Part shown: positions 2,947 through 30,932 of the stretch, piece after piece
Layout: every line of letters starts with the position of its first letter
Position numbering within the stretch: the first letter of the stretch is position 1
DNA from: Bacteroidales bacterium
GTDB lineage: Bacteria > Bacteroidota > Bacteroidia > Bacteroidales > VadinHA17
Length of the DNA: 64,000 nt
Direction of reading: 5' to 3'
Assembly (NCBI GenBank): GCA_963668715.1
Contig: OY764960.1
Location: 3,953,438-4,017,437, forward strand
Made by a program: the position numbers and the translations under genes
The notes under the pieces: generated by a model
Told to the model about the DNA's origin: nothing
The model's database searches: none
Seen by the model: the letters and a program-made list of their open reading frames with translations, nothing else

Positions 2947-2948
2947 AA

Positions 2949-3240: not shown

Positions 3241-3368
3241 GGTCACTTGTATGTGGTCGGGCGGGATTTCTGGAAGAAATCGTGTCAGACCCGCAGGAAA
3301 GTGGGCACGAGGTCTGACTTGTCAGACCGCTAAAACCCCCGCCTGCCATATACAAATTGTTATAGCCA
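3232..3368 (-). repeat. attC-like site 2 (intact)
   Basis: GTGCCTAAC-N8-GTATG...arms TTGTATGTGGTCGGGCGGG / CCCGCCTGCCATATACAA...TATAC-N5-GTTATAGCC. Confidence 0.85.
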
Positions 3369-3381
3369 GTGGTTTTATTCA

Positions 3382-4044: not shown

Positions 4045-4121
4045 ACTCTATGTTTTGTGTGTCGTTCTACCATTGGCTATAACGTGAGTCTGTACAAATA
4101 CTGTTTTATCACATAAATTTA

Positions 4122-4449
4122 TCAATTTCTACTGTTTGTCAGCGGATTTGAAGCAACTAATTTTAGATGGCACAAAAAGAGAATATCCTTATTTGACGGG
4201 AAATAATCCTTTAAAGCAAGGCTTATAATGAGTCTTAGGTCTGAAATTATAAGAAAACAGTACTCCCTGAGGAGTCTGATCAGCTTTTGTGCTCCCATAA
4301 TTGAGATACAACGGCAGATATTATACCCGGTAAACATAAGTCCGACTTCACCCATGACTTTCTCCCTGGTTCTTACAAGGGTATAAGTGAAGCCTTGTTG
4401 CCGTTTCATTGTGCCAAACATATGCTCCGTTATTTGTTGCCGTAATCTG
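4122..4449 (-). pseudogene. C-terminal part of the IS1182 transposase, split off by IS21
   Basis: 'LRQQITEHMFGTMKRQQGFTYTLVR...' matches the C-terminus of 20965..22527. Confidence 0.9.
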
Positions 4450-4581
4450 TGCATATTCCTGCGATTTCGGACACTAAATCCCGCTGAAAGCGGACAGTTG
4501 TTCCCGTTCAAAACGGACACCTGATCCCGACGAAAACGGACACTTTTCACATCGTTCATTTTCGTTTATTATTTTCTAAAA

Positions 4582-5316
4582 TTAATCATTTTTATATTTC
4601 TCTCTTAACGAGTCTCCATCGAGCTCTATTCTATGAGAACTATGCACTAATCTATCAAGGATCGCGTCAGCGATCGTAGGTTCTCCAATAACATCATACC
4701 AGCTTTTAACCGGAAGCTGTGATGTAATTATCGTTGACCTTTTACCATGCCGGTCTTCGAGTAACTCAAGCAAGAACAGCCTCTGGTTGTTATCTAATGG
4801 TTTAAGCCCGAAGTCATCAAGGATCAACAGGTCCAGTTTCTCTATCCTGTTTATTTCGCTTATATAACTGCCATCTGCCTTAGCCATTTTTAGTTGATCG
4901 AACAGTTTTGAGCAGTTACGGTAATATACTTTATATCCCTGCTGACAGGCCTGATGACCCAAAGCAGAAGCCAAAAAGCTTTTACCCAGTCCTGTGTATC
5001 CGGATATGATGATGCTTTGTTTTCTTTTGATCCATTCACAGGACGATAAACGCAGCATCTGTACTTTATCCAGTTTTCTTTTAGCGATGTAATCTATTTG
5101 TTCCATGCTCGCCTGGTAGCGGAACCTGGCGTTTTTTATTAGTCGATCCAGTCGTCGATTATATCGATCATCCCATTCTGCCTGGACAAGATGAGCAATA
5201 ACTTCATCTATGGTAAAATCTTTACTCATTCCTGATTCCTGCATTTTCCGATAGACTCTTGAGAACCCGCTCAGTCGCATCTCCTCAAGTTTCTGCATTG
5301 TTGCTGTTTGATTCAT
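4582..5316 (-). CDS. istB: IS21 helper ATPase IstB
   Basis: Walker A GYTGLGKS, Walker B LLILDDFG, TSQLP...W...IADAILDRLVH. Confidence 0.95.
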   Translation of the reverse strand: MNQTATMQKLEEMRLSGFSRVYRKMQESGMSKDFTIDEVIAHLVQAEWDDRYNRRLDRLIKNARFRYQASMEQIDYIAKRKLDKVQMLRLSSCEWIKRKQSIIISGYTGLGKSFLASALGHQACQQGYKVYYRNCSKLFDQLKMAKADGSYISEINRIEKLDLLILDDFGLKPLDNNQRLFLLELLEDRHGKRSTIITSQLPVKSWYDVIGEPTIADAILDRLVHSSHRIELDGDSLREKYKND

Positions 5317-5337
5317 AATTTTCTGCTATTAAATTTA

Positions 5338-6885
5338 TTATTTGTAATTCTCTTTTCCTCGTATGTTATGATGAAAAGGAAGTTTTATTTCTATTTGGTT
5401 TTCCTGTTCTGTTTTGTGAGTGTTATTTTTCAGGCAGTTCTTGATAAACTTGAATGAGATACAGTTGTACTCAACAGCCCTGCTGCATACTATTTCCAGA
5501 TCTTCCGGTTTATACCCTTTACTTAGGTTCAATACTCCCATGCAAGATTTAAATGCTTGCTGAGGATGTTCTTTGCTGTCCAACAGGAGTCCTATAAAAA
5601 TCTCTACGGAACCGCCCATCTTTTTGGCCCATTTTACAAAACGATCTGTATTCCAACCATCAACAAACTGATGTTCTGCAGGCATATGACCTTTCTCTGT
5701 TGTATAACCATAAGGCCTGCGGTCTCTTTTATGAAGCGCGATACGAACACTATCCTTGTATATCTCAACATTCCTGTTCGTGTAAATGGTTTTGACCTTC
5801 TGTCCGGTATATTGATAGGGCACGCTGTAATAATGCTTGTCCTCTCTTAGGTAAACATGGTGGTGAAATTCAACTTTAGACACCTGGTAACGACGGATCT
5901 CATATCGCTCTTTGGGTAGTGGTCGCAATTCATTCTTTTCTATTTCATTAAATAACTCTCTTCGACTAATATCCCGGCGCTGGAACGGAGCGTTATTTAT
6001 CTCTTCAAGCTCTTCCCGGATAGCTTCATTTAACTCTCCCAGGGAAAAGAACGTCTGGTTTCTTAGCTTAGCAAAAATGCGTTGATAGACAATGCGTACC
6101 GCATTTTCAACCAAAGATTTATCCTTTGGTTTTAAAGGACGGGTAGGAAGAACAACTGTACCATAATGCCGGGCAAGATCATCATAAGTCTCATTTAATA
6201 AGGGTTCATAATTACATGCCTTGTGAACAGCTGACTTCAAATTATCCGGGCATATCCCCCGGGTGACACCTCCATAATAACGCCAGGCATTCTCATTGGC
6301 CCAGATCCAGTCTTCAAGCTTCTGACTTTTTACTCCTTCCACATAAATCAACTGACTGGCACCAAGTATCGTAATAAATATTTCTGCCGGTTTGACCTCT
6401 CCTGTATCCGGATCAACATAATGCATCTTTTTGCCTGTAAAATCTGCATATGTCAGATCTCCGGCTTTGTGCTCTATATGCATTCCCGCTTTCAGCTTGC
6501 TCTCCCACATGCGATAATGATGACAGAACCTGGAGTAACTAAACCCTTCAGGGTTACCTTCCTTGTATTCCTCCCAAAGCAAATAGAGCGTTACGCCAAC
6601 CCGGGCAAGCTCTTTTTCATAATAAGGGAATTCATTGGATAATTCTTCATAAAGCGGATTGACTATCTTATTTCGCTTTTCAAAGACTTCTGTAAGTTCT
6701 ATGTCGTTCATTTCCAAAACATCCTGGTAGGTTAACCCGGAACGCTTATATTCTGCCAGGTACTCCCCAACACTGGTTTTGCTGACCTGGGTGGCCTCTG
6801 CAATCTGCCGGATGCTAAATCGTAATTCCTGACTAAGTCGTAATATCTCTCTTATCTTTTCCACGTTGGTCCTTTTTCTTGGCAT
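5338..6885 (-). CDS. istA: IS21 transposase IstA (start taken at MPRKRT)
   Basis: HTH N-terminus, 'YADFTG', 'PDNLKSAV', 'PKDKSLVE' rve/DDE motifs. Confidence 0.95.
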   Translation of the reverse strand: MPRKRTNVEKIREILRLSQELRFSIRQIAEATQVSKTSVGEYLAEYKRSGLTYQDVLEMNDIELTEVFEKRNKIVNPLYEELSNEFPYYEKELARVGVTLYLLWEEYKEGNPEGFSYSRFCHHYRMWESKLKAGMHIEHKAGDLTYADFTGKKMHYVDPDTGEVKPAEIFITILGASQLIYVEGVKSQKLEDWIWANENAWRYYGGVTRGICPDNLKSAVHKACNYEPLLNETYDDLARHYGTVVLPTRPLKPKDKSLVENAVRIVYQRIFAKLRNQTFFSLGELNEAIREELEEINNAPFQRRDISRRELFNEIEKNELRPLPKERYEIRRYQVSKVEFHHHVYLREDKHYYSVPYQYTGQKVKTIYTNRNVEIYKDSVRIALHKRDRRPYGYTTEKGHMPAEHQFVDGWNTDRFVKWAKKMGGSVEIFIGLLLDSKEHPQQAFKSCMGVLNLSKGYKPEDLEIVCSRAVEYNCISFKFIKNCLKNNTHKTEQENQIEIKLPFHHNIRGKENYK

Positions 6886-7128
6886 CTGTATTCTCTTGTT
6901 GGTTAATAAAGCCAACAGAGATACCGATATCCCGTGGAAAATGAATGATGTGTATGAAAGTGTCCGTTTTCAGCAAGAATCACCGTCCGCTTTCAAAAGG
7001 GGCGGCTGTCCGCTTTCCGCAGGAATCCGTGTCCGTTTTCAACAAGAATTGCTGTCCGCTTTCCGCAGGAATCCGTGTCCGCTTTCCGCAAGAATGAGTG
7101 TCCGTTTTGCGCGAGAATATGCAATCTG

Positions 7129-8372
7129 TAATAATCAGGATTGTCATTCACTCTTTGTGCATTGGCTTCAATGATATCAGCATATTCACTGCGGTCAATG
7201 TACCTTCCGTTGGCTCTGCATACAGTGCAAAGACTCCTGTTTCTACAGTTCCTGCAGTCGGGCGTAGTATATCTCTTAAACCGATATGCAGATTTCTTCT
7301 TATTCTTTCTGTCTCTGTGATTATGCCAACGTCCGTTGGTCTTCATAATGCTTCCTCCGGGACAGGTATAAAAATCATTCTTTTTATCATAGGTAAAACT
7401 ACTGACAGGATATAGTCCTGTATTTTTTGTTGATGGCTTCTTTGGAGAGACGTATGTAATAATATTATGTAAGCTGCATTCTTTCAATTGCTCGCCTGTG
7501 TGATACCCCTTATCGGACAGTACTGTCATAGTATCAACATCAAGAAGTTCTTTTGTACTTACCGCCACCGGAGCCAGTGCATGGGAATCATTCACATCTC
7601 CCGTGTCATATTCCAGCATCATTTTGTGCTTTGAATCTGATGCGGCCTGTATATTATAACCAACATTCACTATGTTCCTGTGTAATACAACGGCTTTTGA
7701 ATCAGGGTCTGTTGTTGATATCTGTTCCTGTCCGCTTTCGATCAGGTCCGCTTGTATATTTTGATACTCTGATCTCTTAAGCCTGCGTTCTGTAAGTTTC
7801 TTTTCAATGTCTTTCTTATCCTGCTCATTATCATTGGCATCCAGCAGTTCTTCATATTCACTGATCTGTTTGTCAATATATTCAATATGCCTTTTCAGTT
7901 TTGCTTCATTGAAATTATTCTTTAACGAATTGCTCCCTCTTATTTTGAAAGAATCAATTGCAACGTTTTCACCTTCTACAAGATCCCATTCCTTAAGCAG
8001 GCAAACGAATCGCCGGAATATCTCCCTGAATGCTTTTGCATTTTCTTTTCTGAAGTTAGCAATGGTCTTATATTTGGGTCTCAGTCCCGTGAGCAGCCAC
8101 ATGGCTTCGATATTTGTTTGAGCCTCTCTCTCAAGTTTTCTGGATGACCGTATTCCATACCTGTATCCATACAGGTACAGCTTAAGCAAGACTGAAGGAT
8201 GATAAGGCGGCCTCCCTTGTTCTTCACAGTTGACGTGTGCAAATCCAAAGCTTTCCAGGTCAATAACATCAACAAAAGCATCAACCACACGAACAAATGA
8301 ATCGGCAGCTATTGCATTCTCCAGGCAGAACATTAACACCTGATCCCTGTTTTCTCCCTGTTTGTGTTGGAT
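7129..8372 (-). pseudogene. N-terminal and central part of the IS1182 transposase; the start ATG of the intact copy is ATC here
   Basis: GRPPYHP...YGYRYGIRSSRKLERE (DUF772) and DDE motifs; truncated by IS21. Confidence 0.9.
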
Positions 8373-8474
8373 TGCAGTGTGTATTTGTTGAATACAAGAT
8401 ACTTAAAGTATGATCAAAGATTAAATATCGAATGAATTGGTTATCAACAAAACAGTGGGTTTTTGCACAGTCTG

Positions 8475-8740
8475 ACGGTCATCGGTATGATTCAGTAGGT
8501 GGCAACGGGCTTCAGACCGTTGTGGCGCGCTTTTTGCCTTTACCACCCAGCGTTCACGCCGGGACAGTTCACCCGTCATAATACTGTTCACTTTTCTGAA
8601 CGTTAAGTTAGTTAATTTAAGTTCACGGAATACTAGCCGTGATTATGTTTAAAATCTTCTATTCATTATACTCTTCACCCCGATAAATGCGGCTGCAAAA
8701 ACGCGTGCCAAACCTATTGATTATACCGCATGTTGTGCAT
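8475..8740 (-). repeat. attC-like site 3 (long, ~265 bp; core split by IS1182)
   Basis: (A)AC-N8-GTATG; arms CGGTATGATTCAGTAGGTGGCA / TGCCAAACCTATTGATTATACCG; TATAC-N5-GTTGTGCATAG at 8732. Confidence 0.75.
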
Positions 8741-10624: not shown

Positions 10625-10681
10625 AGTTTCTATTTAATTTATTAATTGGCTCTTAATCTACAACGGTTACTCAACCATTAT

Positions 10682-10815
10682 GCACAACGGTTGGTGTATG
10701 AGGCGTTGGGCATTTCGAAGCACTTCACTGTCAAACCGCTAATATGTTTATTAAATGTACTCATGCTTCAATTAACCACTTGCTGCCCAATGACTTATAC
10801 ACATTGTTGTGTGCC
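10682..10815 (-). repeat. attC-like site 4 (intact)
   Basis: GCACAAC-N7-GTATG; arms GTGTATGAGGCGTTGGGCA / TGCCCAATGACTTATACAC; TATAC-N5-GTTGTGTGCC at 10806. Confidence 0.85.
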
Positions 10816-10888
10816 CGTGCTTTATTTTCCTCAGTCAGTCTGTGCGATGGGGCAGACATACTCTTTGGCAAGTTTTGGTTTGCGGTTG

Positions 10889-10919
10889 GCTTGTGTGACT
10901 TGCCAATGTGTATGGATGC
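10889..10919. repeat. 31-bp direct repeat, copy 1
   Basis: GCTTGTGTGACTTGCCAATGTGTATGGATGC, identical at 15509-15539. Confidence 0.9.
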
Positions 10920-10926
10920 TTTCAGG

Positions 10927-12159
10927 CTAAATTCTGAAGTCATTCGGTTCAAATTCAAGTACTTTATCAATGATGTCAATATTTTGTTTTCTTTTTTTCA
11001 ACCATCGTTCTTTCCAATAATCAACTAATTCGGTTTTTGTATAATTGTTAAAATGTGGTTGTTTTGTCTCTCCATTTAAAAAAGCCTTGTATTCTTTTGC
11101 TAATGGTACAAAATAAATATTTCTTCTAAATGAGTGTTTTAATAAAAAATCACTATCAAATCCCAAAAGATCGCCTGAAGTACGAATTACACGCATTACC
11201 CAACTTGGTCCATCCCCAAATTTATGACCTACATTGATTCCTTTTGATTTTAGAAGTTGAATCATTAGTAGTATAGTTTCTTCGCTTAAATGTAACGTTC
11301 CAAAACCCTTTGTTTTCCCAATTGGTAGATATAGTAATTCATCACCAAACTTCATTCGATTGTATTGGGAGCTATTTCCATATAAACTTGTTGTAAAAAT
11401 ACCTACAAGTTTATTTGCGACTCTTTTTTCTGTAAGGGTAACTTTCCCTTGATATTTTTTACGGTAGATTTCTCTTATTTCATTGGATGCAAGAATGTAA
11501 GAAATGAGTTTCCCCCCTAATAAATAATTGTATGGTGGTAGAGCTCCAATCACGTAAGCATCTAATGTGTATATCAGATTTTTTGTCCTAGTGTTTTTAT
11601 TCCAACCTATAAAGTCATCTCTTTCAGGAATATGAATAATAGGGCTTCCTAATGCAGCAATTCCAATGACAGGTTTATTTGGTAATGCTCTGTCCCGTAT
11701 TATGAGTTTAATTCTTCTTCCGACATATTCGCTGTAAGGCGAACTCCAATAATATCTTAAAATCCTGAATAATCTATGCTGTTGCCTTGTTTCACAAACT
11801 TCTATAATTGGGTCGATATTTGAACTTAACACGTCTGTTCCTACAGCAAGGTTTTTTCTTGCAAATTCAATGTTATTATCAATCCATTTTTTATGTTTCA
11901 AAATAATTTCATCTCGTTTAAAAGACATTGATTTCTTTATAGTTTCTTTATCGTAACTTTCAGGAGGAATTAAAGTCGGATAAGCATTTTTCGTAGTTGG
12001 CAGTTTAAATTTCCACTTTAATCTTTCCAAGTCACGTCTAATACTATTAATTACCTGTTCTTCAAGTGCTGTTTCCTTTTTCTTGTTTGAAACTGCTTTT
12101 GGTATCACATTTTTAGATGTGATTTCTTTAGGTAAAATAAGTTCTGTTGATTCTTTCAT
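10927..12159 (-). CDS. DUF4338 / Druantia DruA-like protein
   Basis: 'YVGRRIKLIIRD...GIAALGSP', 'AYVIGALPPYNYLLGGKLI', 'TTSLYG.SSQYNR', 'IGKTKGFG' motifs recalled from the DUF4338 family. Confidence 0.75.
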   Translation of the reverse strand: MKESTELILPKEITSKNVIPKAVSNKKKETALEEQVINSIRRDLERLKWKFKLPTTKNAYPTLIPPESYDKETIKKSMSFKRDEIILKHKKWIDNNIEFARKNLAVGTDVLSSNIDPIIEVCETRQQHRLFRILRYYWSSPYSEYVGRRIKLIIRDRALPNKPVIGIAALGSPIIHIPERDDFIGWNKNTRTKNLIYTLDAYVIGALPPYNYLLGGKLISYILASNEIREIYRKKYQGKVTLTEKRVANKLVGIFTTSLYGNSSQYNRMKFGDELLYLPIGKTKGFGTLHLSEETILLMIQLLKSKGINVGHKFGDGPSWVMRVIRTSGDLLGFDSDFLLKHSFRRNIYFVPLAKEYKAFLNGETKQPHFNNYTKTELVDYWKERWLKKRKQNIDIIDKVLEFEPNDFRI

Positions 12160-12160
12160 T

Positions 12161-14212
12161 TCAATTCAAGATTCTTTCCCAATTACTTTTAGGAGCACAA
12201 TAAAACTTCACAATTCCTTTATCTCCATGTTCTGCTTGTTGAACTGTTATATCACATTCTAATAATATGTTGAGAATAACAGATTTTAACTCATTTTCAC
12301 TTCTAAATTCATCTTGAAACTCATCTATTTGTTTTATGTCTTTCAGAATCATGTAAAGTTGTCCGTCATATATGCCCCAAACATCATCGTCAAATGATTT
12401 TCCTGAAAGTTTTGACTTATTCTCTTTTAATTTTGCTTGTAGTGCTTCTGCTAACGCTTTGTTTCTTGCTTCTGATTTTTTTCTAATTTCTTTTGCTGCT
12501 GATTTTTCAAAAGGGACTGCATCCTTATTCTTATTAACTGTTTCTGAATAAAGCTCTTCAAAACTTCTAATTCTCACAGGCAAAACAAATGGTTGTTTTG
12601 GAGCACTCCACATATAACAGTTTCCAGATATAGGTTCACCAATTAAATGAGCAAGTACATCGTGAGAATAGTGTGAATTGTATTTGCCTAAAGTTCCAGC
12701 ATCCCCTTCTGAAAGCAAATGAAAACTAAACCAATTATCTGCTTGGCTTAATAGTTCAGGTGACATAGAACCTGGCTGTTGAGTAACTAAAATTGCACCT
12801 AAATCATATTTCCTTCCTTCCTTAACCCACTCAACAAAAGGACTTGATTCTTCCAAGTTTCTTCCTAATACACTCTGTGCTTCCTCAATTATTGATATAA
12901 CTGGAATTGGAGATTCTCCTGTGAAATTCTCTTGGTTATAATTGAAAATTCTTCTCATCAATAGACCTGCAACATTATATCCTGCAGTGGAACTTAGCAT
13001 ACTAATATCAACGACAACACAATGCCCCTCTCTAAGTGCTTCAATTGTTCCATTTAAAAGTTGGCTATTGGGGTCGTGAAGATGATTAACAACATTACTC
13101 ATATTACTTTTTGCGGCTAAAATCTCTGCCCTAGCATCAGTAGGATTTGTATATCCAAGTATTCTTCCCAATGTTGCATCATCTGCATTTAATCCATCTC
13201 GTGAAATTAAATCGACTAATTCTCTCCATCTTGCAGAGTCAAGTGATTTTAATTTAATAACGTTTTGTTGATTTTGTCGGTCTGGCGAAATAGAAATCCC
13301 AATTACGTCTCTAGAAGGTAAATCGCGAATGTCAATTCTTACATTTCCTGCTTTCCAACTATCATAATAAGGTGATGGTGATGGTCGAGAAGTAAAGACA
13401 ACAATGTGTTCTTGAAGTTGGGGTACATCGCAAAGTCCAGGTCTGTCGTTAAAATCTGGCCAAAAATATTCGCCATCAGCATCAAATATTAAAACACCTA
13501 CATCTTTGCTTCTTTCTCCTCTATCAGTCTTTGGAACACCGTCACGAAAAAGTTCACCCATTAAAAATTTAATGAGATTTGATTTTCCATATCCTGCTCT
13601 TGCAAAAACAACAGAACGCTTTGAAACGAGATTATTGATATTGAAAGTTACTTTGAGAGACGGTGAAATATGTCTTAAAACAGATTCTTGCTCGGACGTT
13701 CTGCCAGAGTAGACAAATTCACCTAAAACATAGTCGCCTAAATCTGTGTTGCCTTCGCTTAGTTGGCATAGCTCCGTAAGAACAATATCGCTTGGCAAAG
13801 CGACCTTTGCACCCAAATGAGGTAATCGTCTCTGAGAAGGAACAAATATTATTCTTTCATTTCCATTTTGAGTTACGTTTTTTACAGCCCCAAGCAGCTT
13901 AATTTGAACTTTATATTTCAGTTTCTGCTTTTTTAAATCTTCTGGGACATCTTGGTCTCGACTCTGCATAGTATTAATATAATCTTCACCTTCTGCCGAA
14001 GCGAGTAATCCAGAAGGAACAAATTTTGTAATTCTTCCTAAGGATGCTTCATCTTTTGAACTAAGTTCAATTAAAAGAAATTGACCTAATTGGGGTCGCT
14101 CAAGCATTGATGAATTATAAGGAGCAACAATTTCTGCTGCAAACTCGAATCCTCTTTCACTGAAGCCTTTGAAAGTTCCAAAGACGTTTGATTTTGCAAA
14201 TAATTCAGGCAT
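12161..14212 (-). CDS. HerA/FtsK-superfamily ATPase (HerA-like)
   Basis: N-terminal HAS-barrel-like region, Walker A ARAGYGKS, FDADGEY, Walker B IIEEAQ, arginine finger EGRKY, VTQQP. Confidence 0.9.
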   Translation of the reverse strand: MPELFAKSNVFGTFKGFSERGFEFAAEIVAPYNSSMLERPQLGQFLLIELSSKDEASLGRITKFVPSGLLASAEGEDYINTMQSRDQDVPEDLKKQKLKYKVQIKLLGAVKNVTQNGNERIIFVPSQRRLPHLGAKVALPSDIVLTELCQLSEGNTDLGDYVLGEFVYSGRTSEQESVLRHISPSLKVTFNINNLVSKRSVVFARAGYGKSNLIKFLMGELFRDGVPKTDRGERSKDVGVLIFDADGEYFWPDFNDRPGLCDVPQLQEHIVVFTSRPSPSPYYDSWKAGNVRIDIRDLPSRDVIGISISPDRQNQQNVIKLKSLDSARWRELVDLISRDGLNADDATLGRILGYTNPTDARAEILAAKSNMSNVVNHLHDPNSQLLNGTIEALREGHCVVVDISMLSSTAGYNVAGLLMRRIFNYNQENFTGESPIPVISIIEEAQSVLGRNLEESSPFVEWVKEGRKYDLGAILVTQQPGSMSPELLSQADNWFSFHLLSEGDAGTLGKYNSHYSHDVLAHLIGEPISGNCYMWSAPKQPFVLPVRIRSFEELYSETVNKNKDAVPFEKSAAKEIRKKSEARNKALAEALQAKLKENKSKLSGKSFDDDVWGIYDGQLYMILKDIKQIDEFQDEFRSENELKSVILNILLECDITVQQAEHGDKGIVKFYCAPKSNWERILN

Positions 14213-15362
14213 TTCTATATCTTATGTTAGTTAAATTTTGACCTAAGTGTTTCATTCTTAATATTTTTTCCTTCTCATCTTTTGTAAGTTTCTGTGTAAT
14301 TCCTTCAAAAAGTATATCCTGTAAAATATCCATTTCAAGACCGTTCACTTTTGCAAAATCATGAGCTTTCTGGACACACATTGGAAAATCAGGAATAGGG
14401 AAACCGGGTTGAGCATCTTTTGTCAGTTGCCCAATTATTTTTTCGGCATCGTCAAGTTGCCATTCAGCAATATCAACTGGCCACACTGGGTCGAAGGGTC
14501 TATCCCCAAACTTCACCAAAAACATTTTTCCAATAGCTTGATAACGATACGTTCCATTTTCATCTGGCTGACTTGTTTCAAGTGTGTCAAGCCAAGTTCT
14601 ATCAAAATTATAGCAATCAGCCTCAATATCATCAGGCACTTGGACATAACAGGGATATGGCTTATGTAATGCTCCTTCCAACTCAAGAGCAACAGAAAGT
14701 CTACTTAAAACCGCACTTTGTTTAGCAACTCCAACCATTGAAACTGAAATGTTTTTCTTCTTGTGGGTATTGTAGGCTTCTCTTATTAATTGGTCAATTA
14801 AAGGGAATACAGTTAGTTTAAACGATTTTGTTCTTAACATTCCCTCTCTGACAATAATTGTATCCGAACCCCATTCACGATATTTCATTAAATCATATAG
14901 AACAGCCCATTCAACAATATCCCTGTAAACCCTCACAGCACCTGTACTCTTTCCGGGTTCTTCAATTCCTTTTAGGAGATAGGATAAATCAAGAACACTC
15001 ATTGTTAAATCTTGACAAAGCTTTCTTAATGGTTCAACTAATAATGGACTACCGTGATTTGCTCGTTCATTAAAATCAGCAGCTTTCGAATTTCCTGCGA
15101 TAGCATCTAAAGCGCATTGATTTCCTCTTGAATCAACGACACGTACTAATTCAATAACCGCTGGATTAAAGTAAAGTCGGTTATCACCTCCATCAGAAGA
15201 TACAAAAGAAACGGCATTAACAGAATATGGTCTAATTGGTTTTACGTCATTCTTAATACGTCTTGCATATTCTCTGAATTTTTGCAAAATAGGGTCCTCA
15301 TTTTTGTATGCATCAAAGACTCTTTTTTTTATTTCAGTAAAGTTATCATCTGCTAATGCCAT
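14205..15362 (-). CDS. NurA-domain nuclease
   Basis: 'FVSSDGG' and 'IIVREGML' catalytic-type motifs, 'VGVAKQS', C-terminal 'GFPIP...KAHDFAKV'; overlaps the HerA gene by 8 bp. Confidence 0.8.
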   Translation of the reverse strand: MALADDNFTEIKKRVFDAYKNEDPILQKFREYARRIKNDVKPIRPYSVNAVSFVSSDGGDNRLYFNPAVIELVRVVDSRGNQCALDAIAGNSKAADFNERANHGSPLLVEPLRKLCQDLTMSVLDLSYLLKGIEEPGKSTGAVRVYRDIVEWAVLYDLMKYREWGSDTIIVREGMLRTKSFKLTVFPLIDQLIREAYNTHKKKNISVSMVGVAKQSAVLSRLSVALELEGALHKPYPCYVQVPDDIEADCYNFDRTWLDTLETSQPDENGTYRYQAIGKMFLVKFGDRPFDPVWPVDIAEWQLDDAEKIIGQLTKDAQPGFPIPDFPMCVQKAHDFAKVNGLEMDILQDILFEGITQKLTKDEKEKILRMKHLGQNLTNIRYRNA

Positions 15363-15508
15363 ATCTATTTTTTATTGTTTATAAGATTTTTCAAAGGTAA
15401 TAATATGAATTTTTCAATTTAGTTTTTTTATATTTTGATTTGTTTTAGTATTCAATCCGGGTTTCTTGCGTTGGCAAAGATTTGGCTCTTTTGCAAGCTG
15501 AAGCGTTT

Positions 15509-15539
15509 GCTTGTGTGACTTGCCAATGTGTATGGATGC
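15509..15539. repeat. 31-bp direct repeat, copy 2
   Basis: Identical to 10889-10919; lies just downstream of the gajB stop. Confidence 0.9.
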
Positions 15540-15560
15540 ATTGTGCTAGCATTGTGTTGA

Positions 15561-17213
15561 TTATTGTTTTTTCGTCTTATATCTTAATTTTTCAATATTG
15601 TTTAATAGTAAAAATTCCGAATCTCTACCTTGTCTCTTTATCATTTCATTATTGTGTCTTTCAGTACTAGAAATCAGGATACATCCTTTTCTTGCTCTTG
15701 TTAATCCAACATAATGTAAGTTTAAGTCTTGATTCCAATCTCCATAAACAGGATTATTAAAGTCATTATTCGGACCTGGTCTTTTATTTGGAAATACCCA
15801 TTCGTAAAGGTCAAGATGAATTACAACATCATATTCTAGCCCTTTTGATTTATGCAAAGTAAGTATGTTTACTTCATCATCATTCGCTGTTTGATATGAG
15901 TTAAGCTCAACCGAATTATTAAGTACAGAATCCAAAAGGTCGATGGACTCTTTACTTTCAAGATTTGGCGCAATTATTTTTGCGACATTGATAAATTCCT
16001 TTTTAAGCTCATCTAAATCAAGTGGTGAATGGTGTGAGATTTTTTCAATAGTTTCCTTGTATGTTTTCAGTTTTTTTAAATCCCTTGATGAAAATCTATC
16101 ATATGAAGTAAACACCTCTACAACATCAATAAATCTGTAGCCCTTATCGAAAACAAAGTAGAGTAAATTTGAAAATATTGCTGACCAAATATTTAAATTG
16201 AGGTCTAGCTCATTACTAACAAATAACCTATGTGGTGATTTTAAATTTTCATTTATTATGTCTGCGCTTCGATTTCCTCTTGTTAATATCGCTATTTGAT
16301 TTCTGTTTTTTACCTTAAAGATTTTCTGAATAGAATCTATTTTATCGTCAACCCATTTTGCGATGGATGTCTCATCACCATTTATCCTACTAAAGAAAAT
16401 TTGATTAATGTCTGTTTGAATTAGTTCAGTCTTTGGGTTTAATAAATAGTTCGAATAATTAATGATACTAGGATGGCATCTGTGGTTTTTATCAAGTTTA
16501 AAAAATTTAAAATTATCATCTGTTGTTAGTTCTTCTAAGTATTTTGAGTCTTTTCCCGAAAAAGCATATATTGATTGATTCAAGTCACCAACCGCAACTG
16601 CAACTATACCTAAATCGTTTATTTTCTTAAATATTTGGTGTTGCTCAAATCCTGAGTCTTGGTACTCATCTATGTAAATATGTTTGTATTTGGCTTTTAT
16701 ATATTTACGACAGGCAATTGAGTTTGTAAAAACATAGTCTGCAAAAACTCCAATTGTTTCAATAAGTATTATACCATTGCTAAAAAAAACACCTAAATCC
16801 TTTATCTTTTTTTTTTCAAGTTGTTCAAGAGTCAAATTTCTATCAACCCAATCAAATCTATCTTTATCTTCATCAGAAAGAGAAGAGTGTTTTATAATCT
16901 TTATCTCATTATTAGGAATTCCGAATATATGTTTTGCAAAAGGAACAATTATCTCTGATAAATTGAATTTGTCAATTGTACCAAAAAAAGAGCCTAAAGG
17001 TTTTTCTCCATTTGACAAGCTTCTGTTTTTTAATTCATTACTAGCTTTATTGGTGTAGGATATTGCAACCACACCTTGATGGTCGTGTAAATCTTTTAGA
17101 TTATCTTTTATTTTCTTGGACAATACAAACGTCTTCCCACTTCCAGGAGCAGCAATGACAACAGAATTGCCATCATAATCAAGAATTAAATTTTGTTGGT
17201 CAGTCGGCTTCAT
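15561..17213 (-). CDS. gajB: UvrD-like helicase, Gabija GajB-like (start taken at MKPTDQQ)
   Basis: AAPGSGKT, YTNKA, IDEYQD, GDLNQSIY, TLHKSKGLEYD, YVGLTRAR; overlaps the OLD-nuclease gene. Confidence 0.8.
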   Translation of the reverse strand: MKPTDQQNLILDYDGNSVVIAAPGSGKTFVLSKKIKDNLKDLHDHQGVVAISYTNKASNELKNRSLSNGEKPLGSFFGTIDKFNLSEIIVPFAKHIFGIPNNEIKIIKHSSLSDEDKDRFDWVDRNLTLEQLEKKKIKDLGVFFSNGIILIETIGVFADYVFTNSIACRKYIKAKYKHIYIDEYQDSGFEQHQIFKKINDLGIVAVAVGDLNQSIYAFSGKDSKYLEELTTDDNFKFFKLDKNHRCHPSIINYSNYLLNPKTELIQTDINQIFFSRINGDETSIAKWVDDKIDSIQKIFKVKNRNQIAILTRGNRSADIINENLKSPHRLFVSNELDLNLNIWSAIFSNLLYFVFDKGYRFIDVVEVFTSYDRFSSRDLKKLKTYKETIEKISHHSPLDLDELKKEFINVAKIIAPNLESKESIDLLDSVLNNSVELNSYQTANDDEVNILTLHKSKGLEYDVVIHLDLYEWVFPNKRPGPNNDFNNPVYGDWNQDLNLHYVGLTRARKGCILISSTERHNNEMIKRQGRDSEFLLLNNIEKLRYKTKKQ

Positions 17214-18966
17214 TCTGAATTTTTTCAATTATGCTTTTGCATTCAAGAAGTGGTTTTGAAATTGGGTTATCTTTTAGTTTTGTAAGTGAGTTTTTATTGT
17301 TCTTTAGAAAATCAAACATAAAGGTTGCTTTTCTTTTTTGCATTGCCTCCACTATTTCTTCTTCCTCCAATTCAGGAAAGAAATCAATTATTTCTTTTTT
17401 TATAGGACTATTGAAGAAATCATTCTCTAAATCAATTTCTGATAAATACAAGCCGTAGTACTCAAGTTCCTCAATAACAGCATTTGCAGATTCCAAATTT
17501 TCCTTTGGTGGATTAGAATCACCTGACCATTTTAGGTTTGATTCATTCTCCAATAGAATTTTTTCTGTTTCATCATCAGGATTGAAAAACTCTTTATAAT
17601 AGGAAATACATCTTTGAATACCTGCAAAACGATGTTTTTCTTTTTTAGGTACTTTAAATATATCATTGTCTGTTCTAAGTACCCAATCAATTTCTAGGCT
17701 ATTTAATATTTGAATGTATGTTGAAAATCCTATTCCATCCACCATAAGAACACTGATATTTAGTCTATCTAAATCAATTCCTATTTGTGTCGATAATGTT
17801 TTATAGAATAGTTCTTCTGATGGTCCCTCAATTAACAAAACAGCATCTGAAAAGAAGGCTTCTGATGTAATAATACTCTTACGATAACCAAAATCAACAA
17901 ATGCATCATCTATAATTTTTGAACAACCATTTGATGCTGCTTTTGTAGCGTCTTTTTTATTTAATAAACGAACTATTGAATTTGGGCTAAATTCAGAAGT
18001 TATTTGTGATGAGTGAGAAGTCAATAATACTTGACCATTTAGAGAGGAATTAAGATAATCAGCTAATTTTCTTTGTTGATGTGGGTGTAAATGTGCTTCT
18101 GGCTCTTCAATACAAAATATTGTAACTTCTGTCAAGCTTTCTTCAGTTATTCCATTTCTTGAAGTCCATAAAGCTAAATATATCTGATTCAAACGACCAT
18201 CTCCACCAATAACAACATTCTCTCCATTACTTTTTGATGCAATTGCTACATTTTTTACAAAGCTATCTGCATTAGATGTACTGGCATCAAAAAGTACTTC
18301 TTGTTTTTTATGATGTAAAGACAACTTAGAAAGTTCGTTGTTGATTGTATTAGTAGCATTTGCAATAAAATTTAGTTTTGGGATTTTTTCATCGACTTTT
18401 TTTAAATCATCTTGAATTTCAGAGAATAACTTGTCGTCAGAGTCAGTTTGCTCATCAGTTCTATCTTCTTTCGCAATCTGAAATAAATAATTTCTTTCGT
18501 TTCGAATATAATTATTAAAATCTCTCTTGCTACTTATATATTTTACATTAAGAACTTTTCTGTAGTATCTATCTTCAATTTCTTCAATATCTTCATATGA
18601 TTTTCCAGCAAACAGTTTATAAGATTTAGCACCTGTCGATTTTTCCCTAATACCTTTATAAACCAAAACTAACATATCATCATCACTAATCTTCCCTTTC
18701 AATTTCGCCACAACGCAATCATCAACAACATCTTCAAAAAACAGTGTAATTTCAAATTCGTTTGTTTCTTCATATGCATAAAAGTCAGAATCTCTAGGCT
18801 CAATATCATAGTCAGATAAACTTCTATCTAATAAAAGTCTAATCGCCCACATTAAATTTGTTTTACCAACATCATTTGAGCCAATGACTAAAGATTTCTT
18901 GGTTAAATTTATTTTAGCCTTTTTGAAATTCCGAAAACCCTTAAGATTTAAAGTCTTTAGTATCAT
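17200..18966 (-). CDS. gajA: OLD-family ATP-dependent nuclease (ABC ATPase + TOPRIM), Gabija GajA-like
   Basis: GFRNF, GSNDVGKTN, IEEPEAHLHP, TSHS; TOPRIM 'LIEGPSE' and 'TDND'. Confidence 0.85.
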   Translation of the reverse strand: MILKTLNLKGFRNFKKAKINLTKKSLVIGSNDVGKTNLMWAIRLLLDRSLSDYDIEPRDSDFYAYEETNEFEITLFFEDVVDDCVVAKLKGKISDDDMLVLVYKGIREKSTGAKSYKLFAGKSYEDIEEIEDRYYRKVLNVKYISSKRDFNNYIRNERNYLFQIAKEDRTDEQTDSDDKLFSEIQDDLKKVDEKIPKLNFIANATNTINNELSKLSLHHKKQEVLFDASTSNADSFVKNVAIASKSNGENVVIGGDGRLNQIYLALWTSRNGITEESLTEVTIFCIEEPEAHLHPHQQRKLADYLNSSLNGQVLLTSHSSQITSEFSPNSIVRLLNKKDATKAASNGCSKIIDDAFVDFGYRKSIITSEAFFSDAVLLIEGPSEELFYKTLSTQIGIDLDRLNISVLMVDGIGFSTYIQILNSLEIDWVLRTDNDIFKVPKKEKHRFAGIQRCISYYKEFFNPDDETEKILLENESNLKWSGDSNPPKENLESANAVIEELEYYGLYLSEIDLENDFFNSPIKKEIIDFFPELEEEEIVEAMQKRKATFMFDFLKNNKNSLTKLKDNPISKPLLECKSIIEKIQNEAD

Positions 18967-19119
18967 GATTTATTATGTTTTAAAGTCTTTATGTTCATTT
19001 TAATTATCCTCTTCATTGGGTAGGTAAAAAATAGCTCTTTTGTTTTTTTAATTTGCATGTGTGTCGGCAAAAAACAAATGTGCTATTTGTGCTGTGGGCT
19101 GTTTTAGCATGGCACACAA

Positions 19120-19469
19120 TGCAGCGCTAAACGAAGTTCCGCACTGAGGGCGAAGGCTGCCGAGCTTGCTCGAGCAGACTGTAAAGCCCGCAAGGGCGGG
19201 ACCAAATTGCGTTTAGCGTCCATGTTCTGACACGTTTTGGCTCGATGCCCAGGTAAAGCTGTTTATTATCATAAAGTTACTAAAGCAATTTGGTTTAGCG
19301 ACTTGTTCTTGCACGTTTGGGCTCGATGCCCGGATAAAGCTGTTTATTATCATAAAGTTACAAAAGCAATTTGGTTTAGCGCTGCATTCGAGCACATTTT
19401 CCAAAAGACCGGGACCCCGAGAATTCGGGGGTAGGGATTTTGGTCAGCTTTAGCTGAATGTGCTCGAAC
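19120..19469. repeat. Non-coding palindromic module family B, copy 3, with an internal 81-82 bp tandem duplication
   Basis: TGCAGCGCTAAAC (19120) / GTTTAGCGCTGCA (19374); duplicated unit across 19211-19381; TTCGAGCACATT / AATGTGCTCGAA inverted pair across 19388-19468. Confidence 0.9.
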
Positions 19470-19597
19470 GTACACATGTATGAAATGTTTGGGGTTTGCG
19501 GGCTCGTCTCTGTCAACCGTTACAAAAGCGGATGCGGAGGAGAATATTTCGAGTAAACACTAAGCCCCCAAATATTTTATACATGATGTTATGGTGC
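19463..19597 (-). repeat. attC-like site 5
   Basis: CGAAC-N8-GTATG; arms CATGTATGAAATGTTTGGGG / CCCCAAATATTTTATACATG; TATAC-N5-GTTATGGTGC at 19588. Confidence 0.85.
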
Positions 19598-19607
19598 GTT
19601 TGTCTTG

Positions 19608-20324
19608 TCATTCCAGTTTTATGTCTTTAATTTTCAAGTCTTTCTTCTGACGGTTTACTCTTGCTTGAAACGAACGTCCTAAATTCAAGTCCTTTTTTAC
19701 GATTCTCAAATTCGCTTTGTCTTGATGATACTTTCTAAATTCCTGTTTTAGTTTATCGTCTTTGAGTTCATTTGGTCCACCGTCAACTTGGATATACTCA
19801 ATTTTTTCAATGTTAATATTATTCAACTCTATAAATCGGTCAACGATTACTGAAAAAGTATTTGGTTGTCTATGGTCAACGTTTAGTTCTTCGTATTTCG
19901 CAAGCTCTTTTGATTCTTGGCATTTAACCTGTCCTTCTTTTGAGTGTTCTTCAAAATAGTCAAGTTTAACACTCCTTAAATCGTCTTGAATTGCTTGTCT
20001 GCACGCTTCTCGGAATTTTGTAAAGTCTGTCTTTGGTGCGTTTATTCGTTTTGTGTACGAAAAAAATTCTGTCGAACCGTCAATTCTTACCAACTCAAAG
20101 GATTTCGTGTTATACTGAACTTTTGCAACTCTTACTTTTTCAATCCCGACCCCAATTTTTTCTTTTACTCTTGGGTGAGTTTCAAGCAAGTTCATAATGT
20201 CATTAAAGTCGTTCGTATTCAATTCTTCTCCAAAGTCGTAAGCGTTCAAAATAGTCTTGAAGTGAGTTAAAGCGTCCTTTTTAGTAGCAAATTCAATTTC
20301 TCCTATTTTGATTGGTTTTCTCAT
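19608..20324 (-). CDS. DCL/DUF3223-like protein with an HNH-like C-terminal motif (cassette C6)
   Basis: N-terminal 'F.TKKDALTHFK.IL', 'FELVRIDGSTEFFSY..', then 'KCQES...LNVDHRQP'. Confidence 0.6.
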   Translation of the reverse strand: MRKPIKIGEIEFATKKDALTHFKTILNAYDFGEELNTNDFNDIMNLLETHPRVKEKIGVGIEKVRVAKVQYNTKSFELVRIDGSTEFFSYTKRINAPKTDFTKFREACRQAIQDDLRSVKLDYFEEHSKEGQVKCQESKELAKYEELNVDHRQPNTFSVIVDRFIELNNINIEKIEYIQVDGGPNELKDDKLKQEFRKYHQDKANLRIVKKDLNLGRSFQARVNRQKKDLKIKDIKLE

Positions 20325-20330
20325 AAAAAA

Positions 20331-20894
20331 CTATTGTTTAAAGATGTCTTTTAACTCGCTGAAATCATTAATGTTTACCCGTATAAAAAAATTGTTCATT
20401 ATTGAATGAAGCATTTTAACGTAGTCATTAAAAACAATTTTAAGTTCTTCAAATTCTTCATCTGTTGCAATAATGATATCTTGAATAGATTTTGGGTGAA
20501 CTAATTTATCTCTCTTTTTCTTGATAATTTTCAGGGATTTATATTTTGAGTCAAGATAGTTTTGAATGATTTCTTCTTTGTCCCAAGTTTTACATATTTG
20601 TTTAAATGTTTTCTTGAATTTGTCTTCAAATGAATGTTTATCAGAATACCCTTCATATGAGTCAAGTTGATTTAAACCAAATATATCCGATTCAACTAAC
20701 GAAAAAAAGCCTTTTAAAGACGCTCTAAATTGTGTATTAAATTTTTCTTTATCACCCTTGAAGGTCTCGGTAATATCTAATAGCAGTTCGTAGTCCTTCC
20801 GTAATATGTTATGTCTTCTTTGATATTCAGTCAATGCAAGACTTGCCTTCCTAAACTCTTCTTTATCTTTGTATTCCTTTGAATGTTCAGTCAT
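20331..20894 (-). CDS. Hypothetical protein with HEPN-like RxxxxH motif (cassette C6)
   Basis: Helical protein with 'KRDKLVHPK' near the C-terminus. Confidence 0.55.
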   Translation of the reverse strand: MTEHSKEYKDKEEFRKASLALTEYQRRHNILRKDYELLLDITETFKGDKEKFNTQFRASLKGFFSLVESDIFGLNQLDSYEGYSDKHSFEDKFKKTFKQICKTWDKEEIIQNYLDSKYKSLKIIKKKRDKLVHPKSIQDIIIATDEEFEELKIVFNDYVKMLHSIMNNFFIRVNINDFSELKDIFKQ

Positions 20895-20927
20895 TTTGTT
20901 GGTTGTCTTTTAAATGCACCATAACGG

Positions 20928-22629
20928 GAGTCTGTGCAAAAACTGCTTTCATCACATAAATTTATCAATTTCTACTATTTGTAAGTGGTTTAAAAGCAAT
21001 TAATTTCAAATGGTAGCACAAATTATTTGACGGGAAATAATCCTTTAAAGCGAGGCTTATAAAGCATCTCAGGTCTGAAATTGTAAAAAAACAGTACTCC
21101 CTGAGGAGTCTGATCAGCTTTTGTGCTCCCATAATTGAGATACAACGGCAGATATTATACCCGGTAAACATAAGTCCGACTTCACCCATGACTTTCTCCC
21201 TGGTTCTTACAAGGGTATATGTGAAGCCTTGTTGCCGTTTCATTGTGCCAAACATATGCTCCGTTATTTGTTGTCGTAATCTGTAATAATCAGGATTGTC
21301 ATTCACTCTTTGTGCATTGGCTTCAATGATATCAGCATATTCACTGCGGTCAATGTACCTTCCGTTGGCTCTGCATACAGTGCAAAGACTCCTGTTTCTA
21401 CAGTCCCTGCAGCCAGGCGTAGTATATCTCTTAAACCGATATGCAGATTTCTTCTTATTCTTTCTGTCACTGTGATTATGCCAACGTCCGTTGGTCTTCA
21501 TAATGCTTCCTCCGGGACAGATATAAAAATCATTCTTTTTATCATAGGTAAAACTACTGACAGGATATAATCCTGCATCTTTTGTTGATGGCTTCTTTGG
21601 AGAGACGTATGTAATAATATTATGTAAGCTGCATTCTTTCAATTGCTCGCCTGTGTGATACCCCTTATCGGCAAGTACTGTCATAGTATCAACTTTAAGA
21701 AGTTCTTTTGTACTTACCGCCACCGGTGCCAGTGCATGGGAATCATTCACATCTCCTGTGTCATATTCCAGCATCATCTTGTGCTTTGAATCTGATGCGG
21801 CCTGTATATTATAACCAACATTCACTACTTTCCTGTGTAGTACAACGGCTTTTGAATCAGGGTCTGTTGTTGATATCTGTTCCTGTCCGCTTTCGATCAG
21901 GTCAGCTTGTATATTTTGATACTCTGATCTCTTAAGCCTGCGTTCTGTAAGTTTCTTTTCAATGTCTTTCTTATCCTGCTCATTGTCATTGGCATCCAGC
22001 AGTTCTTCATATTCACTGATCTGTTTGTCAATATATTCAATATGCCTTTTCAGTTTTGCTTCATTGAAATTATTCTTTAACGAATTGCTCCCTCTTATTT
22101 TGAAAGAATCAATTGCCACGTTTTCACCTTCTACAAGATCCCATTCCTTAAGCAGGCAAACGAATCGCCGGAATATCTCCCTGAATGCTTTTGCATTTTC
22201 TTTTCTGAAGTTAGCAATGGTCTTATATTTGGGTCTCAGTCCCGTGAGCAGCCACATAGCTTCGATATTGGTTTGAGCCTCTCTCTCAAGTTTTCTGGAT
22301 GACCGTATTCCATACCTGTAACCATACAGGTACAGCTTAAGCAGGACCGAAGGATGGTAAGGAGGCCTCCCTTGTTCTTCACATTTTACATGATCAAATC
22401 CAAAGCTTCCCAGGTCAACTACATCAACAAAGGCATCAACCACACGGACAAATGAATCGGCAGCTATTGCATTCTCCAGGCAGAACATTAGCATTTGGTT
22501 CCTGTTTTCTCCCTGTTTGTGTTGCATTACAGTGTTTATTTGTTGAATACAAGATACTTAAAGTATGATCAAAAATTAAATATCGAATGAATTGGTTATC
22601 AACAAAACAGTAGGTTTTTGCACAGTCTG
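20928..22629 (-). mobile_element. IS1182-family element copy 2 (intact, 1702 bp), 4-bp target duplication ACGG
   Basis: GAGTCTGTGCAAAAAC / GTTTTTGCACAGTCTG ends; ACGG at 20924-20927 and 22630-22633. Confidence 0.9.
20965..22527 (-). CDS. IS1182-family transposase
   Basis: DUF772 'GRPPYHP', 'IDSFKI', 'ADKGY', 'EHMFGTMKR' motifs. Confidence 0.95.
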   Translation of the reverse strand: MQHKQGENRNQMLMFCLENAIAADSFVRVVDAFVDVVDLGSFGFDHVKCEEQGRPPYHPSVLLKLYLYGYRYGIRSSRKLEREAQTNIEAMWLLTGLRPKYKTIANFRKENAKAFREIFRRFVCLLKEWDLVEGENVAIDSFKIRGSNSLKNNFNEAKLKRHIEYIDKQISEYEELLDANDNEQDKKDIEKKLTERRLKRSEYQNIQADLIESGQEQISTTDPDSKAVVLHRKVVNVGYNIQAASDSKHKMMLEYDTGDVNDSHALAPVAVSTKELLKVDTMTVLADKGYHTGEQLKECSLHNIITYVSPKKPSTKDAGLYPVSSFTYDKKNDFYICPGGSIMKTNGRWHNHSDRKNKKKSAYRFKRYTTPGCRDCRNRSLCTVCRANGRYIDRSEYADIIEANAQRVNDNPDYYRLRQQITEHMFGTMKRQQGFTYTLVRTREKVMGEVGLMFTGYNICRCISIMGAQKLIRLLREYCFFTISDLRCFISLALKDYFPSNNLCYHLKLIAFKPLTNSRN

Positions 22630-22760
22630 ACGGATGGCAATATGCGGAGGCCGGGATTTCGAAGCTCCAACTTGTCAAGCCGTTGCGAATTTGAGTAAAT
22701 GTACAAAAGTTCAAATTACCCACAACCCCCGGCTTACGTATATTGCGTGTTAGGCATTGG
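22630..22760 (-). repeat. attC-like site 6 (core split by IS1182)
   Basis: (A)AC-N8-ATATG; arms GCAATATGCGGAGGCCGGG / CCCGGCTTACGTATATTGC; N5-GTTAGGCA at 22749. Confidence 0.85.
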
Positions 22761-30710: not shown

Positions 30711-30715
30711 GAATT

Positions 30716-30910: not shown

Positions 30911-30932
30911 TTGAAATATAGTGGGGCTTTTT

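Follow-up and report, generated by a model that had tools for sequence, protein, structure and literature searches.

A probable composite cassette joins Gabija to a NurA-HerA-DruA operon in an integron-like array of a Bacteroidales chromosome

Five defence genes share one low-GC interval

The window analysed here is a stretch of 64,000 nucleotides, C1:3953438-4017437 of a Bacteroidales (Bacteroidota) chromosome, in a genome assembled as a single contig of 4.27 Mb; its nearest GajA relatives and its repeat families likewise point to Bacteroidota. From position 1 to about 24,500 its G+C content is 0.29-0.40, versus about 0.45 beyond, nearly all genes lie on the minus strand and insertion sequence (IS) elements are frequent. 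The subject of this report is an interval of that region in which consecutive minus-strand genes encode the two Gabija proteins, GajA and GajB, followed by a NurA-like nuclease, a HerA-type ATPase and a DruA-like DUF4338 protein (Table 1). The original prediction, made from the letters and their open reading frames (ORFs), had named these five genes and placed them in a single cassette; all five are present, GajA, GajB, HerA and DUF4338 by PADLOC and Pfam matches and the NurA-like protein by its fold.

The first two genes are adjacent, overlap by 29 nt and together have the composition of a Gabija (GajAB) system: both products are full-length PADLOC matches, GajA combines an AAA_15 domain with an OLD-like TOPRIM domain, and GajB carries the N- and C-terminal UvrD domains (Pfam). 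GajA is 81% and 77% identical to its counterparts in two related loci, L045 and L046, described below. The third product, of 385 aa, has no match among Pfam or PADLOC profile models. Foldseek searches with its AlphaFold model (pLDDT 74.6) nevertheless returned TdpB of TdpAB, a complex of HerA-like and NurA-like proteins (8wet_G, E 7e-14, TM ~0.6) and next NurA (3taz_B, prob 0.97), and a homologue at 81% identity carries the UniRef name 'NurA domain-containing'; assignment of this protein as NurA-like is thus supported by the predicted fold. A PDB sequence search with the NurA-like profile gave spurious matches to PPR repeats, leaving the fold search as the informative one. With a HerA ATPase encoded beside it, the modelled nuclease would form a HerA-NurA pair resembling TdpAB (PDB 8wet), in which a TdpB/NurA fold is likewise followed by a HerA ATPase.

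Unlike HerA-NurA complexes, the pair here is always joined to a DruA/DUF4338 protein. DruA homologues at 70-90% identity are invariably accompanied by NurA-like and HerA genes, and the same partners are found in the window and in 10 of the 10 contexts that we read. We ruled out Druantia as the identity of the trio, since DruB-E are absent and DruA/DUF4338 alone is present, and no complete PADLOC system matches the combination. The trio also occurs outside cassettes (L099/L100, L098), in one instance adjoining a 1,298-aa PIF1/AAA_30 helicase and a restriction-modification gene and in another beside housekeeping-type genes, and the module, with protein identities of 75-95% between phyla, is widely transferred. 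About 35 nt before the NurA-like ATG, at 15395-15425 on the minus strand, there is a conserved -7 box of the Bacteroidota type, TACCTTTG, which reads TACTTTTG in L087 and L096. This box suggests a promoter belonging to the NurA operon itself, which would probably make the operon independent of an array promoter.

Table 1. Features of the five-gene interval and of its upstream border, in window coordinates. R1 and R2 are the covariance models described in the text.
Feature	Position	Strand	Evidence or remark
DruA-like DUF4338 protein, 410 aa	10927..12159	-	PF14236 190 bits; PADLOC DruA 265 bits
HerA-type ATPase, 683 aa	12161..14212	-	PF01935 83 bits; several PADLOC HerA models
NurA/TdpB-like nuclease, 385 aa	14205..15362	-	fold match of AlphaFold model
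GajB (UvrD-type helicase), 555 aa	15561..17228	-	PADLOC GajB 624 bits, full length
GajA (OLD-family ATPase-TOPRIM nuclease), 588 aa	17200..18966	-	PADLOC GajA 734 bits, full length
attC B, the cassette's own site	10677..10816	-	R1 135.4 bits
3' bracket H, between DruA stop codon and attC	10844..10927	-	R2 83.1 bits; DNA fold z = -2.85
31-bp direct repeat GCTTGTGTGACTTGCCAATGTGTATGGATGC, copy 1	10889..10919	.	exact match
Internal chimeric H	15468..15547	-	R2 38.3 bits; fold no better than shuffles, z ~ -1
31-bp direct repeat, copy 2	15509..15539	.	exact match
5' bracket H, upstream of GajA	19018..19099	-	R2 60 bits; homologues upstream of GajA in L045, L046
Cassette's first nine bases, TTGTGTGCC on gene strand	19111..19119	-	preceded by A at 19120, G expected
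ORF-less palindromic module, serves as upstream recombination site	19121..19398	-	two internal 81-nt repeats
attC C, next upstream site, ends HEPN-like/DUF3223 cassette	19457..19598	-	R1 121.1 bits

Folded attC-type sites and matched ends delimit the interval

Four elements of 140 nt (3229-3369, 10677-10816, 19457-19598 and 22620-22759) recur in the region, all on one strand and with the ends …AAC and GTT…, and 12 of the 23 predicted base pairs covary among the four copies. A covariance model of this family, R1, applied with filters off at E<=10, assigns the four copies 121-135 bits on the plus strand versus 10-16 bits on the other. The genome holds 21 R1 copies in three clusters, with a single orientation in each; five sites fall between 1507 and 22759 of the window, the one at 1507-1708 being weak, and further sites are split by IS elements. 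The distance from the right-hand end of each 140-nt site to an ORF stop codon is 10-15 nt. These elements are attC-type sites, and the gene (minus) strand is the reading direction of the array. This polarity was taken from how the ORFs are spaced relative to the sites and from two arrays headed by a recombinase, L102 and L103, because the end-matching rule set out next is symmetrical and cannot supply it. Adjoining the weak attC, the array also contains a fragment of a group II intron (D1-D4; Rfam RF02001, 44.7 bits), at 1315-1434 on the minus strand.

Integron-type arrays follow an end-matching rule: a cassette opens with bases that pair with the first core of its own attC. Read on the gene strand, attC B has its R'' core, GGCACACAAC, at 10815..10806 and its R' core, G|TTGTGC, at 10688|10687..10682. 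The original prediction had paired 10806 with 19106-19119, and this pairing was confirmed: GTTGTGTGCC (10806-10815) is complementary to GGCACACAA (19111-19119) at 9/9 bases, a match that would arise by chance at a fixed position with a probability of ~4e-6. The rule also holds at four other junctions in the window (19387-98/19457-68, 12/12; 19588-97/20916-25, 10/10; 3359-67/4075-83, 9/9; 22749-56/24525-32, 8/8) and, with compensating changes, in four related cassettes elsewhere, where the covarying pairs are TTGTATGCC / GGCATACAA in L045, TTGTGCATA / TATGCACAA in L046, TTGTGTGCC / GGCACACAA in L087 and L088, and TTGTATGT / ACATACAA in L091.

The cassette thus defined begins directly after the crossover point A|TTGTGTGCC (19120|19119) and, read on the minus strand, runs down to the crossover G|TTGTGC at 10688|10687, a length of 8,432 bp with its own attC included. 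From 5' to 3' it comprises a 5' bracket hairpin, GajA, GajB, a chimeric hairpin, the NurA-like gene, HerA, DruA, a 3' bracket hairpin, a spacer and a terminal 130-nt folded attC-type site, whose first core, GGCACACAAC, pairs with the cassette's first nine bases. Non-coding DNA between 10817 and 19456 is confined to 10817-10926, 15363-15560 and 18967-19110, and R1 at the settings given found no attC anywhere between 10817 and 19456. The earlier statement that no attC-like hairpin lies between 10815 and 19119 accordingly stood for attC sites and fell for hairpins at large, as three hairpins of another family lie inside. The five genes nonetheless sit between two consecutive crossover points with matched cores and without an attC between them, so that their placement in a single unit was upheld. 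IntegronFinder clusters attC sites at a default distance of 4 kb; the 8.8-kb attC spacing of the window exceeds that distance, and such cassettes would therefore be split or missed.

Several features of the surrounding array touch on these sites. The palindromic module at the upstream border has perfect 12-bp arms (GCAGCGCTAAAC / GTTTAGCGCTGC), and its start, TTCGAGCACATT (19398..19387), pairs 12/12 with 19457-19468. Modules at 716-875 and 2947-3123 have the same arms and internal 81-nt repeats and likewise contain no ORF; all three stand in place of an attC with ATT, not GTT, at the crossover, and relatives occur in the genome's other two clusters and in several related genomes. Upstream of it, a two-gene cassette at 19608-20894, encoding a 187-aa protein (weak CARF/HEPN match) and a 238-aa DUF3223/HamC-like protein, is bounded by matched cores: the right core of attC C, GTTATGGTGC (19588-19597), pairs 10/10 with GCACCATAAC (20916-20925). 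A left core of attC D reading GTCTGAC was ruled out, these bases being the end of an IS1182 element and the core lying at 20916-20925. Two IS1182-family copies (20926-22632 and 4084-8476), 97-98% identical, are inserted in the same orientation into different attC sites, either at the AAC core or a few bases from it, which suggests that the element targets attC; two of the end matches in the window became visible because these insertions were recognised. The second copy is in turn interrupted by an IS21 element (istA/istB, 4582-6915), and where this element meets the split IS1182 there are six tandem 23-nt repeats (…GTCCGCTTTC…; 6954-7109), which may represent the terminal repeats of IS21. Elsewhere in the window, at ~30309-31500, lies a long run of tandem repeats with an 8-nt period (144 overlapping register copies), overlapping ORFs at 30386-30946.

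A second hairpin family brackets the cargo

Each of the three non-coding stretches within the cassette contains one copy of a second hairpin family, which we call H. It is 85 nt long with invariant CTCTTT…AATGTG; 10 of its 15 pairs covary over 29 copies from many genomes, and the invariant CTCT/TGTG segments carry two conserved T·T mismatches. H is scored with its own covariance model, R2. It was ruled out as an attC, both because its flanks are direct GCCAAC repeats rather than inverse cores and because a separate attC follows ~20-150 nt after H at at least six cassette ends. Neither attC B nor H gave any match in Rfam at a permissive threshold. The metagenome-assembled genome (MAG) that contains L045 has 53 attC and 24 H matches, lying on the same strand on every one of the 11 contigs that carry both (a count made by eye), and where the two are close the gap is ~20-60 nt. 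Inside large cassettes H brackets the cargo. Outside the window, at C1:3164226-3182862, four co-oriented H copies follow defence-like operons with no attC nearby; one pairs a PD-Lambda-2_B-like gene with a small ORF resembling a toxin, another is a Lamassu-like operon (PDC-M68), and another encodes an NTPase-like protein of 742 aa.

The internal copy differs from the two outer ones in being a chimera. Its gene-proximal 31 nt are identical to the H copy that follows DruA, forming a direct repeat whose two exact copies, 4,620 bp apart, are the only ones in the 4.27-Mb genome. Its distal arm (CTTCAGCTTGCAAAAGAGCCAAATCTTTGCCAACGC, 36 nt) is identical to the 5' bracket of the NurA-like gene in cassettes carrying NurA-HerA-DruA only and in other contexts. 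The original prediction had named a missed site near 15,400-15,560 as what could split the unit; a structured H does occupy 15468-15547, and it is not an attC.

Each operon also occurs alone in the same frame

Gabija alone forms a cassette of 3.8-3.9 kb in L045 (a Bacteroidales MAG) and in L046 (Mesonia algae). In L045 the order is G|TTGTATGCCATGCTAAAA, H, GajA, GajB, H, spacer and attC (R1 86.8 bits), with the attC core, GGGCATACAAC, matching the cassette's own start; L046 has the same layout with the core pair TTGTGCATA / TATGCACAA. NurA-HerA-DruA alone forms a cassette of ~4.9 kb in L096, L087 and L088, with DruA 90% identical, in the order attC, G|TTGTGTGCCATGCTAAAA, an intact H, the NurA-like gene, HerA, DruA, H, spacer and a terminal attC (105.7 bits) with the core GGGCACACAAC. 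The cargo of these cassettes differs while the 3' frame is shared: the window is 83%, 68% and 87% identical to L045 over H, spacer and attC, respectively, and 78%, 83% and 88% identical to L088, attC B being 87-88% identical to the sites that end the two kinds of single-operon cassette. The possibility raised earlier that relatives might show other boundaries was therefore borne out in part, as each operon alone is a cassette with the same frame.

A further two-system cassette is found on the metagenome contigs L091/L092. It starts with G|TTGTATGTC, H, NurA-like, HerA and DruA genes and continues with PDC-M62A/B (Septu-like) and a further H, ending in an attC of 200 nt with a core, ACATACAAC, that agrees with the start; it holds five genes and two systems in ~8.2 kb, with no H between the systems. 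Large defence cassettes are thus a property of this Bacteroidota lineage.

Probable fusion of two cassettes within a hairpin

On this evidence we consider it likely that the interval forms a single composite cassette (8,432 bp; minus strand, 19119-10688) in an integron-like array, joined from a Gabija cassette and a NurA-HerA-DruA cassette. We infer that the two parents had a common frame and were joined in the loop of H, with loss of the attC that had lain between them. The direction, from single cassettes to composite, follows from the fact that H is intact in NurA-only cassettes and hybrid in the window. Two routes could lead from cassettes with homologous frames to a join inside H. A deletion of ~0.3 kb between neighbouring cassettes would have removed half a hairpin, the spacer, an attC, the start of the following cassette and half of its hairpin; alternatively, the NurA module would have been inserted into the 3' hairpin of the Gabija cassette. 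Either route would yield the 31-bp repeat and a hairpin unable to fold. An exact scan of metagenome contigs for the hairpin junction returned one match, within an unrelated intact H, so that normal hairpins also contain part of the loop sequence at the junction; the fusion itself was not met a second time.

A fusion of this kind has a counterpart in class 1 integrons, where fused gene cassettes arise when two are joined after loss of the attC between them. As there, two former cassettes now depend on one attC and would be movable only together; the present case differs in that the join lies in a distinct conserved hairpin rather than in an attC and in that the partners are multi-gene operons. 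With no site left between the operons, a cassette recombinase could excise, shuffle or lose the two systems only as a pair.

Several observations weigh against this interpretation. A simple H-to-H deletion leaves the 31-bp identity between the internal and terminal arms unexplained, and to account for it requires gene conversion, parental hairpins that were nearly identical, or the insertion route. The composite is found only in this genome; among 60 relatives compared at the DNA level the repeats match and the genes never do, no DruA homologue occurs in 300 genomes of the order, and neither an orthologous empty site nor a second composite copy was found that would prove movement as a single unit. 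The upstream core is ATT (A|TT) and not G|TT, and excision there may be poor; at the equivalent point L087 and L096 read G|TTGTGTGCCATGCTAAAA. The identity of the attC sites rests on our own covariance model together with the end-matching rule. The best matches to IntI (TIGR02249) in the genome reach at most 107 + 83 bits against a cut-off of 265, and the stretch of the model specific to IntI, positions 178-239, is unmatched. No recombinase is encoded in the window or adjoining the array, and the genome's single homologue of the array-head recombinases of related arrays (394 aa, C1:1736445-1737263, 45% identity over the catalytic half) lies 2.2 Mb off.

The most serious alternative makes H a second kind of recombination site, so that the interval would consist of two independently mobile H-bounded modules nested in a cassette frame. 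The internal H is indeed a hybrid of two parental hairpins joined in the loop, and the NurA module starts at one and the same hairpin point (…|CTTCAGCTTGCAAAAGAG…) in the window and in L089/L090, where the DNA upstream is unrelated. The frame (the first 19 nt, the 3' H, the spacer and attC) is kept while the cargo differs, H flanks defence operons outside attC arrays as well (four copies at 3.164-3.183 Mb of the genome; L099/L100), and invariant CTCT/TGTG with two T·T mismatches is what would be expected of a protein-binding hairpin. However, inverse AAC/GTT cores are missing from H, as is a linked recombinase; the genome's two Y1 HUH transposase genes, considered as partners of H and dropped, both lie far from any copy. 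In the internal H the outer stem has been lost and folding does not exceed that of shuffled sequences, so that it is at present a poor site. The two systems of L091 are joined with no intervening H, and homologous recombination or replication slippage at a conserved hairpin would explain the same junctions. We therefore regard independent mobility of the two modules as unlikely. A related proposal, which we hold tentatively and with more doubt than confidence, is that H is a second-tier exchange site at which defence operons are swapped, stacked and fused within a constant frame, giving rise to multi-system 'super-cassettes'; the enzyme acting there would be a putative hairpin-specific recombinase or nickase.

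It is very unlikely that the history ran in the opposite direction, with the five-gene composite ancestral and the single-operon cassettes its deletion derivatives. All three forms do have a homologous frame, and direct H repeats could mediate deletions, but the 5' hairpin is intact and fully paired in the NurA-only L087, L096 and L097 whereas the window's hybrid is unpaired, and a deletion cannot regenerate an intact hairpin from a hybrid. Gabija-only cassettes in two distant taxa with different core pairs also weigh against it. Finally, an ordinary defence island flanked by unrelated repetitive extragenic palindrome-like or miniature inverted-repeat transposable element-like repeats, with a nine-base end match due to chance, would suit a region rich in IS elements and with no integrase nearby, yet it is scarcely credible and already contradicted by the covarying core pairs: ends match at five junctions in the window and, with compensating changes, in four cassettes elsewhere, and the repeats are oriented, clustered, structurally covarying and found directly after the array-head recombinase in relatives.

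Recombinases of related arrays and mobility of the cassette

Related arrays are headed by a co-directional XerD-like recombinase of 415-547 aa. In L102, from the L045 MAG, a 547-aa tyrosine recombinase (PF00589 and PF13495) is followed by a co-directional ORF of 821 aa with an attC 16 nt past its stop codon, and in L103 (Mesonia) a 415-aa recombinase occupies the same position. The array of the window, with no adjoining recombinase and its sole homologue so distant, is therefore an orphan array that is probably static unless an enzyme acts in trans, and as judged from the sequence the present-day mobility of the cassette is doubtful. Two trios of tyrosine recombinase genes, at C1:3939744-3942505 (11 kb before the window) and C1:477445-480206, have a layout like that of a 'recombinase in trio' and are unrelated to the array-head recombinase.

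Reading the array as a classical integron failed, since no protein of the genome reaches the IntI cut-off and related arrays are headed by a XerD-like recombinase instead. The cut-off is likewise not reached by any protein of the L045 MAG or of Mesonia algae (L046). Of the family's 61 genomes, 7 do encode a true IntI; R1-type sites were absent from the four IntI-bearing contig regions that were fetched (G069, G064, G028 and G019), a result that is uninformative given the fragmented assemblies, and R1 sites occur on other contigs of all seven IntI-bearing genomes.

The broader proposal that whole multi-gene defence islands move as cassettes survives in modified form. Arrays of this type do carry multi-gene defence cassettes, namely Gabija alone, NurA-HerA-DruA alone and the 8.2-kb unit of L091; the unit in the window, however, is probably a secondary fusion and not primordial, and it shows no sign of present mobility.

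Discussion

The array shares much with defence-bearing integron cassettes and integrase-free attC clusters (CALINs), as described for sedentary chromosomal integrons (Darracq et al., bioRxiv 10.1101/2024.07.02.601686) and for mobile-integron BRiCs (bioRxiv 10.1101/2024.07.02.601719). The folded attC-type sites have inverse cores (…AAC / GTT…), a cassette opens with bases complementary to the core of its own attC, the arrays are co-oriented and the cargo is defensive; as in a CALIN, the attC sites (identified by our own covariance model) are clustered in an array without an integrase. It differs from integrons in having no IntI, in that related arrays carry a co-directional XerD-like recombinase, and in the extra bracket hairpins inside the cassettes.

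A comparison in layout is offered by the rAID-1 arrays of Bacteroidales, which combine a 5' XerD-family tyrosine recombinase with co-directional low-GC genes and integron-like intergenic repeats and whose cargo is small orphan genes for immunity to type VI toxins (Ross et al., bioRxiv 10.1101/471110). Our arrays likewise come from Bacteroidota, and in their arrangement L102 and L103 match the rAID-1 layout. In the window the GC content is low, at 0.29-0.37 versus 0.45 in the core genome, the repeats are present and the recombinase is absent from the head of the array; its cargo, unlike that of rAID-1, consists of large anti-phage operons.

The size of the cargo in the window also departs from what has been reported. 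A RefSeq-wide survey of this literature counted 783 defence systems in integron cassettes, which 'never exceed 2 components' and are of below-average size, a pattern that its authors attributed to size constraints on cassette formation and recombination. In contrast, the window holds five genes and two full-size systems in 8.4 kb. A full-size Gabija, a three-gene HerA-NurA-DruA operon and two independent 8-kb cassettes with two systems each, all with matched ends, contradict the view that cassettes are restricted to small systems, and the limit on cassette size may hold for particular lineages only or reflect the search tools. Standard searches, which require IntI or assume that attC sites lie within 4 kb of each other, probably miss a large pool of mobile defence loci in Bacteroidota.

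Cassette systems can thus hold defence loads far beyond those described to date, and the cassettes of this lineage suggest that stacked immunity can be built up in an array and inherited as a single unit. The fusion scar in the window provides a concrete example of how a multi-system cassette originates.

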